DNA of 64,000 nt from Candidatus Bipolaricaulota bacterium. Lineage in GTDB: Bacteria > Bipolaricaulota > Bipolaricaulia > M55B111. Each line of letters starts with the position of its first letter. Position 1 is the first letter of the stretch. The stretch covers positions 44,940 through 108,939 of the forward strand of contig JAGYME010000001.1 in NCBI GenBank assembly GCA_018400715.1, read 5' to 3'. Below are positions 25,832 through 57,291 of this stretch, in pieces. The translations under genes and the position numbers were made by a program. Under the pieces are notes generated by a model. That model did no database searches. It saw nothing but the letters and a program-made list of their open reading frames with translations, and had not been told where the DNA came from.

Positions 25832-27022
25832 ATGAATATTACGGCTACGAAGCTGAAGACGGTTATGTTGCTGGGGATGTTCTTTTTTTTGCTCGCTTGC
25901 TCCGCTACGGTTTTTGGTCAGTCCTCCGATGACGGTTGGGGGCCATACCTCACTGTCGGGAAGGGTCCTGCAATAGTGGTCAACTGGAAGACCGATAAAC
26001 AATGGGCGGGAGAGGTCTCCTACTCGGCCGCATCCCCGGGTCCGGATGAGGAGAGTTTCACGAAATTGGAGAGAGAAACCGGGCCGGTCCAATTTCATCA
26101 CGTGCTGTTAGACGACCTGAAGGGAGGGACCGAATACGAATACGAGGTAAAGGGAAGTGAGGGTCCGTCTTCATATTACTTCAGAAGCCTCTCGGATGAC
26201 CCTCAAGAATTTGCGTTCTTCGTCTACGGCGATAATCGGACTTGCGTACAGAGACACCGGATGCTCTCCATCTGGATGGCGATGGATAGCTGGGACCCGA
26301 CCTTCATATTTCATACGGGAGACCTGGTAGAGCGGCCCACTCCCTCACGCTGGGCGGACTTCTTTTGGGCGATTGAACCGTTTAGCCGGTCTACCCCGCT
26401 GGTGCCCGTGCTGGGAAATCACGAAATGTATCACGGGAGCTATTTTGATGCCTTCTCTCTACCGACCGAAGACGGCGTCTATAAGAGAGGGTGGTATTCG
26501 TTCGAATACGGCCCGGTAAACTTCGTAATCCTAGACTCGAACGTAAATGAAATTGGATTATCCAAGTTCCTAGAGCAGACGGAATGGCTTAAGCGGGAGC
26601 TGGAAGGTCAGACGAGGGAGTACACCGTAGTCTTCTTTCATCACCCGATTTACTCCTCCGGATACTCGTCAGGTGTGGATTCCGGGCTGGCCGAGAGTTG
26701 GGGGAGCCTGTTTGAGAAACACGACGTCGACCTCGTCTTCAACGGACACGTGCACGCCTACGAGCGGCTCGTCAAGGACGGGGTAACCTACGTCGTCACC
26801 GGGGGCGGGGGCGCCCCCACGGACAACATATCTTCCAGGCTTGATATCTCCAAGGCGGCCCAGGGAGACTCCCTCCATTACGTCAGGGTCTCCGTTACGG
26901 AAACGGGGTTGGAACTTGAGACGGTGGAGGTCGCCCGGGTAAATCGCGAAGGAGAGTCCGGTAGAGTTGGGTGCGACGCCGAACTGTCTGAAGGTAGGGC
27001 GATAATCGACGATAATTATTAG
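25832..27022 (+). CDS. secreted metallophosphoesterase (purple-acid-phosphatase-like)
   Basis: GGAGGAA RBS and signal peptide MNITATKLKTVMLLGMFFFLLACSA. GDNR, HTGDLVE, GNHE, GHVHAYER metallophosphatase motifs. The TAG stop is completed by the first bases of the MITE. Confidence 0.85.
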   Translation: MNITATKLKTVMLLGMFFFLLACSATVFGQSSDDGWGPYLTVGKGPAIVVNWKTDKQWAGEVSYSAASPGPDEESFTKLERETGPVQFHHVLLDDLKGGTEYEYEVKGSEGPSSYYFRSLSDDPQEFAFFVYGDNRTCVQRHRMLSIWMAMDSWDPTFIFHTGDLVERPTPSRWADFFWAIEPFSRSTPLVPVLGNHEMYHGSYFDAFSLPTEDGVYKRGWYSFEYGPVNFVILDSNVNEIGLSKFLEQTEWLKRELEGQTREYTVVFFHHPIYSSGYSSGVDSGLAESWGSLFEKHDVDLVFNGHVHAYERLVKDGVTYVVTGGGGAPTDNISSRLDISKAAQGDSLHYVRVSVTETGLELETVEVARVNREGESGRVGCDAELSEGRAIIDDNY

Positions 27023-27125
27023 GGACGGTGCTTGACATTTTGACAATTTGGGCAAGTCCCTTTGCTAATTAATTCCCAATAGACCGGCTGTTTAGAATAA
27101 TGTCAAAATGTCAAGCACCGTCCCT
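27021..27125. mobile_element. MITE/REPIN-like element copy 1 (105 bp; 25-bp perfect TIRs AGGGACGGTGCTTGACATTTTGACA)
   Basis: Left end 27021-27045 equals the reverse complement of 27101-27125. The core is about 80% identical to copy 2. Confidence 0.9.
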
Positions 27126-27133
27126 CGATTTCA

Positions 27134-27544
27134 TCAATCGCAGATGTTTAACCTCTCGTCTTCGTCCACCGGTACCCCACAGGACTGGAGGAACTCCGGT
27201 TTGCGCTGGATTACTCTGCAGATCTCACATATCCTGCTGGGCAAGTCGTCAACCCGTCCTTCGACGAGGTCCCTGGCGAGCTTCTCTACCCTGCTGTATA
27301 CCTCCTCGTGTCTCGTGTAACTTCTTCCCCGTTTTTCCCTAACGTACTGGGAGACGCCGGCCTGACTTATGCCGAGTAGGTCGCCGACTTCCTGCTGGGT
27401 TATATCCATTCTTACCATCTCCCTGGCAAGACAGCCACGGATGCAGGGCACAATGTACCAAACGGCAACCTCGCAGGGTTGCTTGTGAACAAGTTTTTTT
27501 TCTTCTTCCTCCTGAGCCTTCTGTTCGTCGTTTGTTCCTGCCAT
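27134..27544 (-). CDS. XRE-type HTH transcriptional regulator with N- and C-terminal Cys pairs (putative metal/redox-binding)
   Basis: QQEVGDLLGISQAGVSQYVREKRG helix-turn-helix; CEVAVWYIVPCIRGC and CEICRVIQRKPEFLQSC motifs. Confidence 0.6.
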   Translation of the reverse strand: MAGTNDEQKAQEEEEKKLVHKQPCEVAVWYIVPCIRGCLAREMVRMDITQQEVGDLLGISQAGVSQYVREKRGRSYTRHEEVYSRVEKLARDLVEGRVDDLPSRICEICRVIQRKPEFLQSCGVPVDEDERLNICD

Positions 27545-38364: not shown

Positions 38365-39171
38365 ATGGAGAATAAAGGAAAGAAGACAGCCCTGATCACC
38401 GGGGCGTCACGGGGAATTGGTTACGAGATAGCGAAGCTCGCTGCTCAGAACGGCTACAATTTGGCCATCGTGAGTCGCTCTCTGGAAAACCTCGTCTCCG
38501 TTAAAAAGAAAATCGAGAGGGAGTACGGCGTCAACGTTGAGCCAATCGCGGGTGACTTAAGTTACACCGAGACGGCAGAGAGGATATTTGACCGCTTGAG
38601 CGGTGCGGATATGTGGGTTGATCTACTCGTAAACAACGCGGGTAGGGGTCAAATGGGGGAGTTCATCGAGACGGACTGGGAAGTAGACCGGGAGATGATG
38701 CGGTTAAACATGGACGCGGTGGTTTACCTGACCGACCTGTTCCTGCCACAGATGATAGAGAGGGGACAGGGAAAGATCTTAAACGTTTCATCGCTGGCCG
38801 CATTTGCTCCGGGTCCCCTCATGGCCCTCTATTACGCGACAAAGGCCTTCGTTCAGAATTTTTCCGAAGGACTGGCCGAGGAGGTCGCAGATAAGGGGGC
38901 GACCGTGACCGCCCTTTCTCCTGGACCGGTGGACACGGGGTTCGAGATAAAAGGAGTAAAGCCATCTGAGAACGGAAACAAATCTGTCAGGGTGTCCCCT
39001 GAGTTGGCCGCAAAAGTCGGATACAACGGCGTCATGAGCGGCAAGCGAGTCGTCGTCCCCGGCGGGGCGGTCTCAGTTGCCCCACAGCTGGCCCGCCTCT
39101 TACCGCGGAGGACAGTAAGCAGCTTCATCAGTTGGCTAAACAACCGCCTATTGTACAGGGACGGTGCTTGA
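38365..39171 (+). CDS. SDR-family oxidoreductase; last four codons and stop lie inside MITE copy 2
   Basis: TGASRGIG and NNAG motifs, S...YxxxK. AGGAG 8 nt before the ATG at 38365. The stop TGA at 39169-39171 is inside the TIR. Confidence 0.8.
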   Translation: MENKGKKTALITGASRGIGYEIAKLAAQNGYNLAIVSRSLENLVSVKKKIEREYGVNVEPIAGDLSYTETAERIFDRLSGADMWVDLLVNNAGRGQMGEFIETDWEVDREMMRLNMDAVVYLTDLFLPQMIERGQGKILNVSSLAAFAPGPLMALYYATKAFVQNFSEGLAEEVADKGATVTALSPGPVDTGFEIKGVKPSENGNKSVRVSPELAAKVGYNGVMSGKRVVVPGGAVSVAPQLARLLPRRTVSSFISWLNNRLLYRDGA

Positions 39172-39261
39172 CATTTTGACAATTTTGTCAAGTTCATTTG
39201 CTATGTAATTCCCTATAGGCCGTCTGTTTCGGATAATGTCAAAATGTCAAGCACCGTCCCT
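39157..39261. mobile_element. MITE/REPIN-like element copy 2 (105 bp)
   Basis: TIRs 39157-39181 and 39237-39261 are perfect inverted copies; same orientation and a similar core to copy 1. Confidence 0.9.
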
Positions 39262-39322
39262 CCATTAACTAGTTAATGGACTGTCGACTTAGCATGTCAC
39301 ATAGTGTTATTTGTGATATGAC

Positions 39323-40195
39323 ATGCGGACGGCAAGAAGAACATATAAGGGTGCCTTCCATCACGTAATGAACCGTGGTCACGAAGGCAAGATGATATTT
39401 TCTTCCAGAGGCCTCAAACGAAAGTTCCTAAAGTTCCTGGTCGATCAGGCCGACAAGACGAAGATTAGGGTATTTGCTTATTGCCTTATGAACAATCATT
39501 ATCATTTGGTCCTACAGAATAGTTCCGGGAAACTTTCTAACTTTATGCGCAATCTAAACGGATCCTTTGGGACGACGTATAGGAATAGGGAGGGAGGCAA
39601 AGGTTATGTCTTTCAGAACCGCTTCAAATCCACGCTTATCACGACAGATCATTATCTCTCGGCTGTAATAGCATATACGTTGTTGAATCCTCTTCGAGCT
39701 GGTCTGGTAGAAGATCCGTATAATTACGAATGGTCGAGTATCAATGAATACTTCTCTAACGACAAGAAGACCGTCACCGATAGGGAATTTGTTGAAAATC
39801 TCTTCATGTCCCAGGACGGGCTGAGAAGACATCTATCACATTGGGTTGGGAGAGAACTACCCGTGAAAGACACCGATCAAGGCGAAGTGATCGGCGAAGA
39901 GAAGGGGCCGATCAGAAGGACGGGGATCATTGACAGGGCAAAAGAGGATGTGCAAAGATTTCCCAAGGTACAGGTTGTTATCGCCAGATTCGAAATGGAG
40001 AAAGGTGTCGAGTTGAGCGATATAGATCTCTCCAGCCACAATGGAAAGCGATTGAGGGCGGAGCTATTGGTTCGCCTCAAGGACGATGCCGGACTAACTT
40101 ATAGAGAGATCAGTGAAATGTCGATATTTGAAACTCTGAGTTATTCTTCTCTTGGGAAAATATATCAGCGAACGAAGAGAAGACTGGCAACGTAG
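39323..40195 (+). CDS. IS200/IS605-family HuH Y1 transposase (TnpA), REP-associated tyrosine transposase (RAYT)-like, 290 aa with C-terminal HTH-like extension
   Basis: YHVMNRGHEG...AYCLMNNHYHLVLQ (HuH motif)...YVFQNRFKS...YTLLNPLRAGLV...YEWSS (catalytic Tyr region). Flanked by MITE copies 2 and 3. Confidence 0.8.
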   Translation: MRTARRTYKGAFHHVMNRGHEGKMIFSSRGLKRKFLKFLVDQADKTKIRVFAYCLMNNHYHLVLQNSSGKLSNFMRNLNGSFGTTYRNREGGKGYVFQNRFKSTLITTDHYLSAVIAYTLLNPLRAGLVEDPYNYEWSSINEYFSNDKKTVTDREFVENLFMSQDGLRRHLSHWVGRELPVKDTDQGEVIGEEKGPIRRTGIIDRAKEDVQRFPKVQVVIARFEMEKGVELSDIDLSSHNGKRLRAELLVRLKDDAGLTYREISEMSIFETLSYSSLGKIYQRTKRRLAT

Positions 40196-40331
40196 AATGG
40201 GTTAGGTAAAACAAAAAGCTCGTCCTCCTCCACATATCCAATTTGTTTTTTCCTTTGATTTATTCCGCGGTCACCCATATAAAATATCGTTAACTAGATA
40301 TGAAAATTACAATCCTAAAGGGTGAAAAATA

Positions 40332-40625
40332 ATGAAGAATAATGTTGAAGATAATGACCAGGGCTTACAGCTGGCCTCCCCCGTGGTAGTTTCCTGTCGT
40401 GATGAAAACGGAATGACAATGCGCTGGTAGTTGCATACGCGTCCAACTGTAGTTTTGACCCCCCCAATGTTAATTGTTGGCATCGTCCCTTCTAGATATT
40501 CATATCATATGGTAAAAGAAACTGGTGCCTACGTGGTTAACCTGGTATCTGAAGACCTCAAGGAAGAATTTGATTATCTCGGGCACAATAGCGGCCGAGA
40601 TGTGTTTAGTAGGGACGGGGCTTGA
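40332..40625 (+). pseudogene. flavin-reductase-like (FMN-binding split-barrel) gene remnant; in-frame TAG at 40428 and truncated by MITE copy 3
   Basis: SPVVVSCRDENGMTMRW-stop-LHTRPTVVLTPPMLIVGIVPSRYSYHMVKETGAYVVNLVSEDLKEEFDYLG resembles the N-terminal half of flavin reductases. The reading frame terminates ...RDGA* inside the TIR. Confidence 0.5.
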
Positions 40626-40715
40626 CAGTTTGACATTTCTAGCAACTCCCGTTGCTGTAAGCGTTTCGCTGTAATTCGACCGTAAAATATTGTCAAAATG
40701 TCAAGCCCCGTCCCT
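40611..40715. mobile_element. MITE/REPIN-like element copy 3 (105 bp; TIR variant GGGG on both arms)
   Basis: AGGGACGGGGCTTGACA...TGTCAAGCCCCGTCCCT; core unrelated to copies 1 and 2. Confidence 0.9.
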
Positions 40716-40723
40716 ACTTTTTC

Positions 40724-40751
40724 TTGACATTCTTCTAATCTGTGATATACT
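40724..40751 (+). promoter_or_regulatory. sigma70-type promoter TTGACA-16-TATACT upstream of the GntR-family gene
   Basis: Consensus -35 at 40724-40729 and -10 at 40746-40751, 9 bp past the MITE end. Confidence 0.55.
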
Positions 40752-40806
40752 ACAGTTGAAATGTAATATATCAACTCACCATTTTTCTTACATTTGCGTG
40801 ATACAT

Positions 40807-41451
40807 ATGGTACTTAACAAGCAGAGCCTGGCGGACCAAATATACCACGAAATTAGGGACCTGATAATTAACGTGGAGGTCGAGCCGGGCGAAAAAATCG
40901 ATGTCTCCGTTCTGGAGGAAAAATACGAAGTAAGTAGGGCACCGATCCGCGAAGCCTTAAACCGCCTGGCAAATCAGGGACTGGTTGAGGTACGTCCGAG
41001 GGTTGGTTATTTCGCCGTGGAACTCTTACCTAATCAAGTACGGGATATTTGTGAGCTGAGGAAACTCTTTGAGACGTACGCTCTCCAGCAGTCGGTCGAG
41101 GAGGTAGACAAGGACGACCTGAAAGAACTCCTTGAGGAGTCTCTTGAATTAAAACACGATGGACTGGACCCAAAGGAGCTTAGGTTCCGTTTTGACCAGA
41201 CGGATGAAAGGCTGCATAAGTTGATAATCACTCACGCCGACAACGAGCTGCTCGAGGAGTTTACCGAGCGGATCCATAACCTGATCGGCCTCACTAGACA
41301 CCTTAACGAGAGAATTCAGGAAGCGATTGACGAGCACGTTATCCTACTACGGGCGATGATCAATCGAAACAGTGAAAGGGCGAAAAAGGCGTTAAGCAAG
41401 CATCTAGATAACGTCGAGGAAGAAATTTTGAGGTCAATTAATTCCGGCTAG
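40807..41451 (+). CDS. GntR-family transcriptional regulator (FadR/FCD subfamily)
   Basis: N-terminal wHTH QIYHEIRDLIINVEVEPGEKIDVSVLEEKYEVSRAPIREALNRLANQGLVEVRPRVGYFV plus a helical FCD-type C-terminal domain. The ORF-track N-terminal extension is translated MITE sequence. Confidence 0.8.
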   Translation: MVLNKQSLADQIYHEIRDLIINVEVEPGEKIDVSVLEEKYEVSRAPIREALNRLANQGLVEVRPRVGYFAVELLPNQVRDICELRKLFETYALQQSVEEVDKDDLKELLEESLELKHDGLDPKELRFRFDQTDERLHKLIITHADNELLEEFTERIHNLIGLTRHLNERIQEAIDEHVILLRAMINRNSERAKKALSKHLDNVEEEILRSINSG

Positions 41452-56988: not shown

Positions 56989-57171
56989 ATGACTAGACGC
57001 GTAAGTCTGGCTGTAGTAGTCGGTCTGGTCGTTGGATTAATAGTTGGTGGAGTAGTGGGCCTTGCTCAAGAGGAAAACGAAGCAACCGACATGGACCCAT
57101 CGGTCTTCGTGATAGAGAACGAAAGCAAATATGATTTCGACGAGACAGTCGAGATGATCCACGTATTATAA
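56989..57171 (+). CDS. small membrane protein (60 aa), hypothetical
   Basis: Single TM (LAVVVGLVVGLIVGGVVGL) followed by an acidic tail. Confidence 0.35.
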   Translation: MTRRVSLAVVVGLVVGLIVGGVVGLAQEENEATDMDPSVFVIENESKYDFDETVEMIHVL

Positions 57172-57187
57172 CAGGGACGATTATAAC

Positions 57188-57291
57188 AGGGACGGGGCTT
57201 GACATTTTGACAATATATCCAGGTTAATTTTACGGTAAGGGCGGCTGGTTGGCCTTCACAAAAAAATGTCAAAATGTCAAGCTCCGTCCCT
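57188..57291. mobile_element. MITE/REPIN-like element copy 4 (104 bp; one TIR mismatch)
   Basis: AGGGACGGGGCTTGACATTTTGACA ... TGTCAAAATGTCAAGCTCCGTCCCT. Preceded by a 15-bp tandem duplication ATTATAACAGGGACG. Confidence 0.85.

Follow-up and report, generated by a model that had tools for sequence, protein, structure and literature searches.

TIRYT proteins, subclass 2.1 of the TnpA-Y1 transposases, are encoded by RAYT-like genes of elements called TIRtrons, which carry long terminal inverted repeats (TIRs) that in the majority of described cases, although not all, start with GGGGWSAS, and in some genomes dimers of these TIRs are dispersed (PMC3733652, PMC6006769). Small hairpin repeats may also reach into genes: the QMITEs of Coxiella burnetii overlap gene 3′ ends by 1-50 bp (PMC5896051), and the GTAG termini of repetitive extragenic palindromic (REP) sequences supply TAG stops (PMC3733652). 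Here we describe a 105-nt hairpin element that was analysed in a 64,000-nt stretch of DNA from a Candidatus Bipolaricaulota bacterium (GenBank assembly GCA_018400715.1, contig JAGYME010000001.1, positions 44,940 to 108,939 of the forward strand; hereafter the window) and that encodes the last codons of a short-chain dehydrogenase/reductase (SDR) gene. The element is likely to be a head-to-head TIR doublet of a TIRtron, with its cognate Y1/HUH TIRYT encoded in the window, and thus a member of a REPIN-like repeat family. The copies of the element and the transposase gene are as follows.

27021-27125: copy 1, a 105-nt TIR doublet that occupies the spacer between a metallophosphoesterase gene and a convergent helix-turn-helix (HTH) gene (27134-27544, minus strand)
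39157-39261: copy 2, a TIR doublet of 105 nt, with a core of 55 nt between arms of 25 nt
39157-39181, plus strand: left 25-nt TIR (arm) of copy 2, in which lie the R-D-G-A codons of the SDR gene and its TGA stop (39169-39171)
40611-40715: copy 3, a 105-nt TIR doublet whose core is unlike that of copies 1 and 2
57188-57291: copy 4, a 104-nt TIR doublet
39323-40195, plus strand: TIRYT, a 290-aa RAYT-like Y1/HUH tyrosine transposase, between copies 2 and 3

Copy 4, the transposase gene and a second TGA within the arm are additions to the preliminary description of this DNA. The 25-nt arms of all four copies read AGGGACGGnGCTTGACAtTTTGACA; they are perfectly complementary in copies 1 and 2, whereas copies 3 and 4 show a single mismatch or G-T pair. 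The arm pattern matched eight times in the window and not once in 100 dinucleotide-preserving shuffles. The boundaries are sharp, with all eight element ends reading A-GGGACGG and the adjoining outer base variable. The 55-nt core is common to copies 1 and 2 only, which are 89% identical over the full element length, and the cores of copies 3 and 4 are unrelated. As single-stranded DNA the copies fold into hairpins with a 25-bp stem, at -30 to -34 kcal/mol and a z-score of about -9.5 (copy 2: -29.8 kcal/mol, z -9.6), and Rfam gave no match to any part of the window. From either end inwards, the arm reads (A/G)GG GAC GGN GCT TGA. Both orientations have a TGA at position 13 for one phase and a second at position 21 for another, so that rapid termination is built in for two of the three phases. 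The resulting tails are x-D-G-A-stop in phase 0, x-G-R-C-L-T-F/I-stop in phase 2 and at least 10, mostly hydrophobic, residues in phase 1.

The window TIRYT is presumed to be the enzyme that mobilises the doublets. It matches Pfam Y1_Tnp above the family cutoff (E 6e-7) and the NCBIfam model NF047646 (REP_Tyr_transpos) with 64.2 bits over residues 5-138 and model positions 4-146 of 146; the equivalog cutoff of 80 bits was missed by this protein as well as by its homologue at locus L051 (59.6 bits). The HUH motif (H59-Y-H61), the tyrosine (Y118, in Y-x-L-x-N-P-x-R) and the WSS motif (W137-S-S139) are invariant among 32 homologues; the closest homologue, P0243, is 53% identical. The AF2 model (pLDDT 84.5) had as its best PDB match 4er8 (TM-score 0.70), the E. 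coli TnpA-REP with bound REP hairpin, followed by the TnpA of IS608 and ISDra2. A phmmer search of PDB sequences gave zero matches, so 4er8 was reached by profile and fold searches only. The C-terminal block is conserved and helical (G241 to Y281, pLDDT 82-95). The gene is flanked by doublets, at 61 nt upstream and 415 nt downstream. Degenerate private arms beside it were considered and discarded, as their local alignment was no better than that of shuffles (fractions of 0.56 and 0.82 reached the score).

The proteins and repeats agree with TIRtrons in several respects: a RAYT-like Y1 protein of about 300 aa with HUH, tyrosine and serine motifs and a conserved C-terminal extension, a gene placed between long inverted repeats that start with a G-run, and dispersed TIR dimers. 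The start of the arm fits GGGGWSAS at seven of eight positions in most genomes (GGGGACGG) and at six of eight in the window (AGGGACGG). Unlike the published motif, however, position 7 is G and not A, and an arm of 25-29 nt, well beyond the 8-nt motif, is common across lineages. The host lineages also differ from those of described TIRtrons (a Bipolaricaulota-like window, and genomes of WOR-3, Stahlbacteria, Aminicenantes and Omnitrophota), the window gene is flanked by complete doublets instead of single arms, and the C-terminal HTH-like domain of subclass 2.1 (Bac_DnaA_C, HTH_23, HTH_28) is unmatched by Pfam HTH models in the TIRYT proteins found here.

With REPIN-RAYT systems (PMC3116915; Nunvar 2010) the element shares non-autonomous inverted-repeat doublets that form a long hairpin, flank a Y1 transposase and are found at gene 3′ ends, and the closest enzyme structure is that of a TnpA-REP. 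It is unlike them in that the arms are not short self-palindromic REPs: GGGGACGGTGCTTGACATTTTGACA has neither an internal palindrome nor the GTAG tag, and contains a direct TTGACA repeat. The protein, too, is about twice as long as RAYT and falls below the NCBIfam cutoff (64 versus 80 bits). A Y1/HUH domain and the lack of target-site duplication are shared with the IS200/IS605 family (IS608, ISDra2), and recognition of a single-strand hairpin is to be expected by the same comparison. In IS200/IS605, however, the hairpins are subterminal, insertion takes place 3′ of a fixed tetra- or pentanucleotide, and it is the whole element that is multicopy, whereas the elements described here have perfect TIRs and flanks that are weakly A-rich or G, and their full unit sits at a fixed locus.

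A scan of 185,579 species genomes for the arm gave 79 loci with the same 24-nt arm in about 20 metagenome-assembled genomes (MAGs) assigned to WOR-3, Stahlbacteria, Aminicenantes, Omnitrophota and TA06 or unclassified, a taxonomy that may be imperfect for MAGs. The window and these loci together contain 143 arms, which form 56 inward-facing pairs. Forty-eight pairs are short doublets of 73-386 nt (4 in the window, 44 elsewhere), and the other 8 are units of 983-994 nt that consist of an arm, a 298-312-aa TIRYT homologue and an inverted arm. The long units bounded by these arms encode a Y1 protein only, and a DDE transposase was found in none of them. No direct repeat of 2-10 nt was present at the boundaries in any of 55 pairs, and shifting the boundary by 1-2 nt yielded chance-level 2-mers only. 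A fixed insertion target was also rejected, the flanks being weakly G at -1 and A-rich at -2 to -6 with no tetranucleotide.

These results bear on the term MITE, short for miniature inverted-repeat transposable element, used in the preliminary description, which is right as to shape only. A conventional MITE, derived from a DDE-type insertion sequence and swapping native C-termini for its own tail and stop by the act of insertion, would explain 25-nt TIRs in a non-coding, multicopy element of about 105 nt, yet we regard this origin as unlikely, as it is opposed by the lack of target-site duplication in all 55 pairs and by arms that bound nothing but a Y1/HUH protein.

Both arms of one doublet change together at position 9 within this genome, where copies 1 and 2 have a T/A pair, copy 3 a G/C pair and copy 4 a G facing T; either a hairpin constraint or the copying of one arm from the other fits this joint change. 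At position 18, T/T was found in 44 pairs, A/A in 8 and mixed bases in 4, a distribution to which lineage effects may contribute. At its left junction, copy 4 shows the 15-nt sequence ATTATAACAGGGACG twice in tandem (57165-57179 and 57180-57194), each unit joining 8 nt of flank to arm positions 1-7. Before this duplication arose, a small open reading frame (ORF; 56989-57171) would have had its TAA end 1 nt away from the arm. Part of the arm is likewise repeated near the junctions of L087 (three copies), L069, L071, L025 and L084. A single fixed nick site was rejected as an explanation of these duplications, because their breakpoints range from 6 to 14 nt into the arm.

The full unit was found between the same two neighbours, a beta-CASP and an anti-sigma gene, in 5 genomes whose TIRYTs are mutually 61-95% identical, and the TIRYT gene was found once per genome among the loci retrieved. 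In three WOR-3 loci (L010, 2365-2389; L051, 2802-2826; L071, 4296-4320) the anti-sigma stop (TAA or TAG) straddles the arm boundary of the unit; the TIRYTs being 62-78% identical, such a junction can evidently persist over long divergence, as judged from these comparisons. In 6 of the 8 full units, and also in that of P0243, exactly 20 nt separate the end of the arm from the TIRYT start codon. From a TTGACA within the arm, 16 nt lead to a TACAAT-like box, which is followed after 6 nt by GTG or ATG (L051, 1836-1883; L095, 820-866). The same arm-to-start distance was seen in L010, L054, L057, L071 and L015, and the window TIRYT has no such layout. This suggests, by inference only, that the arm may hold the -35 box of a leaderless TIRYT mRNA. 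In L050 (6118-7102), no stop of the TIRYT ORF precedes the right arm of the unit, and the frame runs on through that arm (...GKMSKCQAPS), so that the 3′ end of this transposase gene is arm sequence.

Two of the short pairs, arm-bounded remnants of 219 and 386 nt, retain C-terminal codons of TIRYT and are deletion intermediates. Remnants of this kind encode its last 42-45 or so residues and lie at L027 1319-1537, L083 3983-4201, L087 6947-7166 and L090 3314-3532 (219-220 nt) and at L040 7101-7486 (386 nt). The 219-nt form occupies one site beside the D-alanine-D-alanine ligase gene (Ddl) across several Stahlbacteria-type sequences; it is an old derivative deleted in situ, which shows how a doublet can originate from a full unit.

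The consequences for coding sequences were followed at three genes of the window and at the region that follows copy 3.

38365-39171, plus strand: SDR gene (adh_short), 268 aa, whose last four codons and stop lie inside copy 2
25832-27022, plus strand: metallophosphoesterase gene, 396 aa, whose stop TAG (27020-27022) straddles the boundary of copy 1
40332-40625, plus strand: flavin-reductase remnant in a single frame, with an in-frame TAG at 40428-40430, cut by copy 3
40718-40752, plus strand: promoter-like region of a GntR gene (TTGACA, 16 nt, TATACT), starting directly after copy 3

The SDR ORF ends ...LLYRDGA*, and AGG GAC GGT GCT TGA corresponds to element positions 1-15, which bears out the earlier statement that the gene terminates inside the copy 2 TIR with an element-encoded tail. 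None of 29 aligned SDR orthologues ends RDGA. The closest of them, P0002 (79% identity), ends ...RLNQKLLEE* where the window protein ends ...WLNNRLLYRDGA*, and the element was not seen in the 107 nt of contig past its stop (locus L080). The alignment with element-free orthologues that the preliminary description had called for thus puts the net effect at no more than 2-3 native residues replaced and 3 gained. Homology with L080 resumes at window position 40718, at the GntR promoter (alignment score 34, against a maximum of 26 in 200 shuffles), so the segment 39157-40715, comprising copy 2, TIRYT, the flavin-reductase remnant and copy 3, is additional DNA of the window. Relative to L080, the window lacks about 80 nt of native sequence, the native stop of the SDR gene among them. 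For a conventional MITE it could be said that the SDR tail is element-derived and that its insertion and this loss were possibly one event. The 1,559-nt block 39157-40715 is absent from the SDR-GntR spacer of L080 (6799-6905); it may be a composite unit that carries a gene fragment, or it may have been lost in the relative. More distant SDR orthologues (L091-L093) are non-syntenic and carry no information on the origin of the fragment or the direction of this change.

At copy 1 the picture was different. The final codons of the phosphoesterase ORF are TAT TAG, and element positions 1-2 are the AG of this stop, so the description of this stop as a T completed by the element is right, but its 3′ end has not been rebuilt: the closest orthologue, P0122 (80% identity), has the same aligned stop codon, likewise TAG, at an element-free locus (L081). 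The spacer there is 40 nt, and in the window it consists of the element and 8 nt. The length of the phosphoesterase is thus unchanged, with two bases of the stop simply shared with the element. The flavin-reductase fragment does end, as had been noted, with the element's tail (...SRDGA*, stop at 40623-40625, inside copy 3). However, this piece is a pseudogene and not a remodelled protein, since it contains the in-frame TAG and spans Pfam positions 9-81 of 153 only. An unchanged phosphoesterase and a pseudogene both count against insertion by a conventional MITE as the direct cause of new C-termini. Taken over the three window genes, the effects lie between no change at all and three added residues. 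The stops of the window ORFs are also those used in the NCBI protein records P0001 and P0121.

Beyond copy 3, a near-consensus sigma-70-type promoter with an upstream TG (40724-40751) precedes the GntR/FCD gene (40807-41451) and is conserved in L080. A T-run lies directly after copy 3 (ACTTTTTC), making it the sole doublet of the window that resembles an intrinsic terminator.

A survey of all arm ends showed 87 long inward-reading ORFs that end between -150 and +110 nt from an arm boundary, distributed as follows.

Stop inside the arm: 20 ORFs (17 at position 13, 3 at position 21)
Stop straddling the boundary: 5 ORFs
Stop up to 50 nt outside the arm: 38 ORFs
Stop more than 50 nt outside the arm: 20 ORFs
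Stop in the element core: 4 ORFs

Thirteen genes validated by Pfam, in six genomes or bins, terminate as x-D-G-A/S-stop at position 13 of the arm, with Pfam domains that reach almost to the junction: those for SpoU, two glycosyltransferases, a GGDEF protein, a CDF transporter, RnpA, Ddl, LysRS, AbiEii, GH5, an integrase-SAM-like protein, DUF3795 and the window SDR. The recurrence of one tail, proposed from the window alone, is therefore confirmed by the junctions of arm loci. Validated read-in genes are distributed over the three phases as 13:1:0, the single other gene stopping at position 21, and the chance that 12 of 13 would share one given phase is 1.7e-5. Among stops a little beyond the arm there was no such bias (6, 10 and 11 per phase), indicating that the bias is specific to ORFs that read in. 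This argues for selection on the tail over phase-specific insertion, to judge from these reading frames. For a conventional MITE, the tail in 13 genes speaks in its favour and the unbiased phase outside the arm against it.

Coincidence was also considered, in which palindromes or terminators of an ordinary intergenic kind would be located at gene ends by chance and the shared tail would be a by-product of ORF calling. This explanation gains something from 5 of the 17 position-13 ORFs of the first survey, which have no Pfam domain and look like antisense artefacts. However, the eight matches against none in shuffles, the 79 loci in about 20 MAGs, and the 13 fused genes with Pfam domains near the junction refute it, the stops shared with the records P0001 and P0121 also stand against it, and we give it next to no credence.

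How a gene comes to be fused was seen at Ddl. In four Stahlbacteria-type sequences this gene ends ...ILKTSLHRF*, with a TAA 18-44 nt outside the arm, and in L023 a small indel deleted the native stop, so that the protein now ends ...ILKTARNSPGDGA* at the arm TGA. The fusion is therefore secondary to an element that was already resident, which goes against a MITE that remodels genes as it inserts. The proposal that the element inserts into 3′ ends and donates its tail holds for the donation, but a later indel is another route. Clean insertion at or before the native stop was unsupported by in-silico excision of the doublets, which closes the frames only after 1-53 codons.

Another explanation is that the doublets are 3′-end modules selected by the host, in which a bidirectional RNA hairpin ends or stabilises convergent transcripts and fail-safe stops serve both sides. 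TIRYT would in that case serve maintenance and be inherited vertically, as in proposals for REPIN-RAYT, and x-DGA-stop fusions would be favoured beyond being tolerated. This reading is doubtful, although it has more to commend it than a conventional MITE. In its favour, the arms are far more conserved (24-25 of 25 nt) than the TIRYT protein (44-63% identity), and the full unit is syntenic in 5 genomes with the anti-sigma stop straddling the arm in L010, L051 and L071. Furthermore, genes end on both sides in 12 of 43 doublets, both convergent neighbours terminate inside the two arms of a single element in L002, L008 and L013, and REPs are reported to lie no farther than 20 bp from either 3′ end of convergent genes (PMC3733652). 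However, a T-run follows copy 3 only, a terminator scan of 38900-41000 called neither copy 2 nor copy 3, and 17 of the 43 doublets have no long ORF ending nearby. Arm conservation is explained equally well by recognition by the enzyme together with a -35 box in the arm, and is inflated by the exact-pattern search: P0243 is bounded by a variant arm, GGGGACGGGGGTTGACATTGTGACA (L095, 820-845 and 1776-1800), that differs at 3 of 25 positions, implying that the arm co-diverges with the enzyme elsewhere and that the scan under-samples the family. The arms evolve slowly, without being invariant.

The TIRtron reading would account for these observations as follows. TIRYT would move doublets via single-stranded hairpin DNA, by analogy with the IS200/IS605 and RAYT enzymes. 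The doublets occupy short spacers behind genes in compact genomes, and native spacer DNA is trimmed at the element sites, as the two empty-site comparisons (L080, L081) show. An indel, or the insertion itself, could then remove the gene's own stop, whereupon translation would enter the arm. Surviving fusions are almost all in phase 0, presumably because their short polar tail is tolerated and other tails are selected against.

Several points weigh against this account. No Pfam HTH model matched the C-terminal domain of any of the 32 TIRYT members, and hhalign found no match between the TIRYT C-terminus and an approximate DnaA C-terminal sequence. The window TIRYT has no canonical private arms 20 nt before its start codon, doublets alone flanking the gene, and no experimental transposition by any TIRYT was found in the literature searched. 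The relative lacks the whole block, and the SDR fusion may have arisen either by insertion or by later deletion. The exact arm pattern used for the locus search yields a sample that favours well-conserved copies, and 7 of the 13 fused genes, though different genes, come from one MAG (STB_17). Tail selection as the cause of the phase bias is also something that we infer.

Donation of stops by repeats has already been published for REPs and Coxiella MITEs and is no new mechanism. Like QMITE1, QMITE2 and GTAG REPs, the elements described here are small hairpin repeats that overlap the 3′ ends of functional genes, by anything from a few to tens of bases, and donate a stop or a few residues; unlike them, they belong to a different repeat family with a different presumed enzyme and have a strong phase bias to a four-residue tail, a bias not seen in PMC5896051 or PMC3733652. 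What is new concerns the host lineages, the length and conservation of the arm, the bias towards one phase and the deletion intermediates. With full units, remnants deleted in situ and dispersed doublets side by side, these loci give a sequence-level view of a hardly studied class.

For annotation, a repeat can encode the final codons and the stop codon of genuine genes, among them SDR, LysRS, Ddl and RnpA, and masking repeats, or assuming that they are strictly intergenic, therefore mis-calls gene ends. A further-reaching idea, which we hold to be improbable, is that the doublets are a domesticated bidirectional 'gene-end cassette' in several deep bacterial lineages and that the phase bias reflects positive selection in streamlined genomes; the 25-29-nt arm would then combine a TIRYT recognition site, a -35 box for a leaderless TIRYT mRNA and a stop with a benign four-residue tail, and convergent genes could share a spacer of zero length. 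The 13:1:0 phase bias itself amounts to a natural experiment on the C-terminal tails that proteins tolerate.

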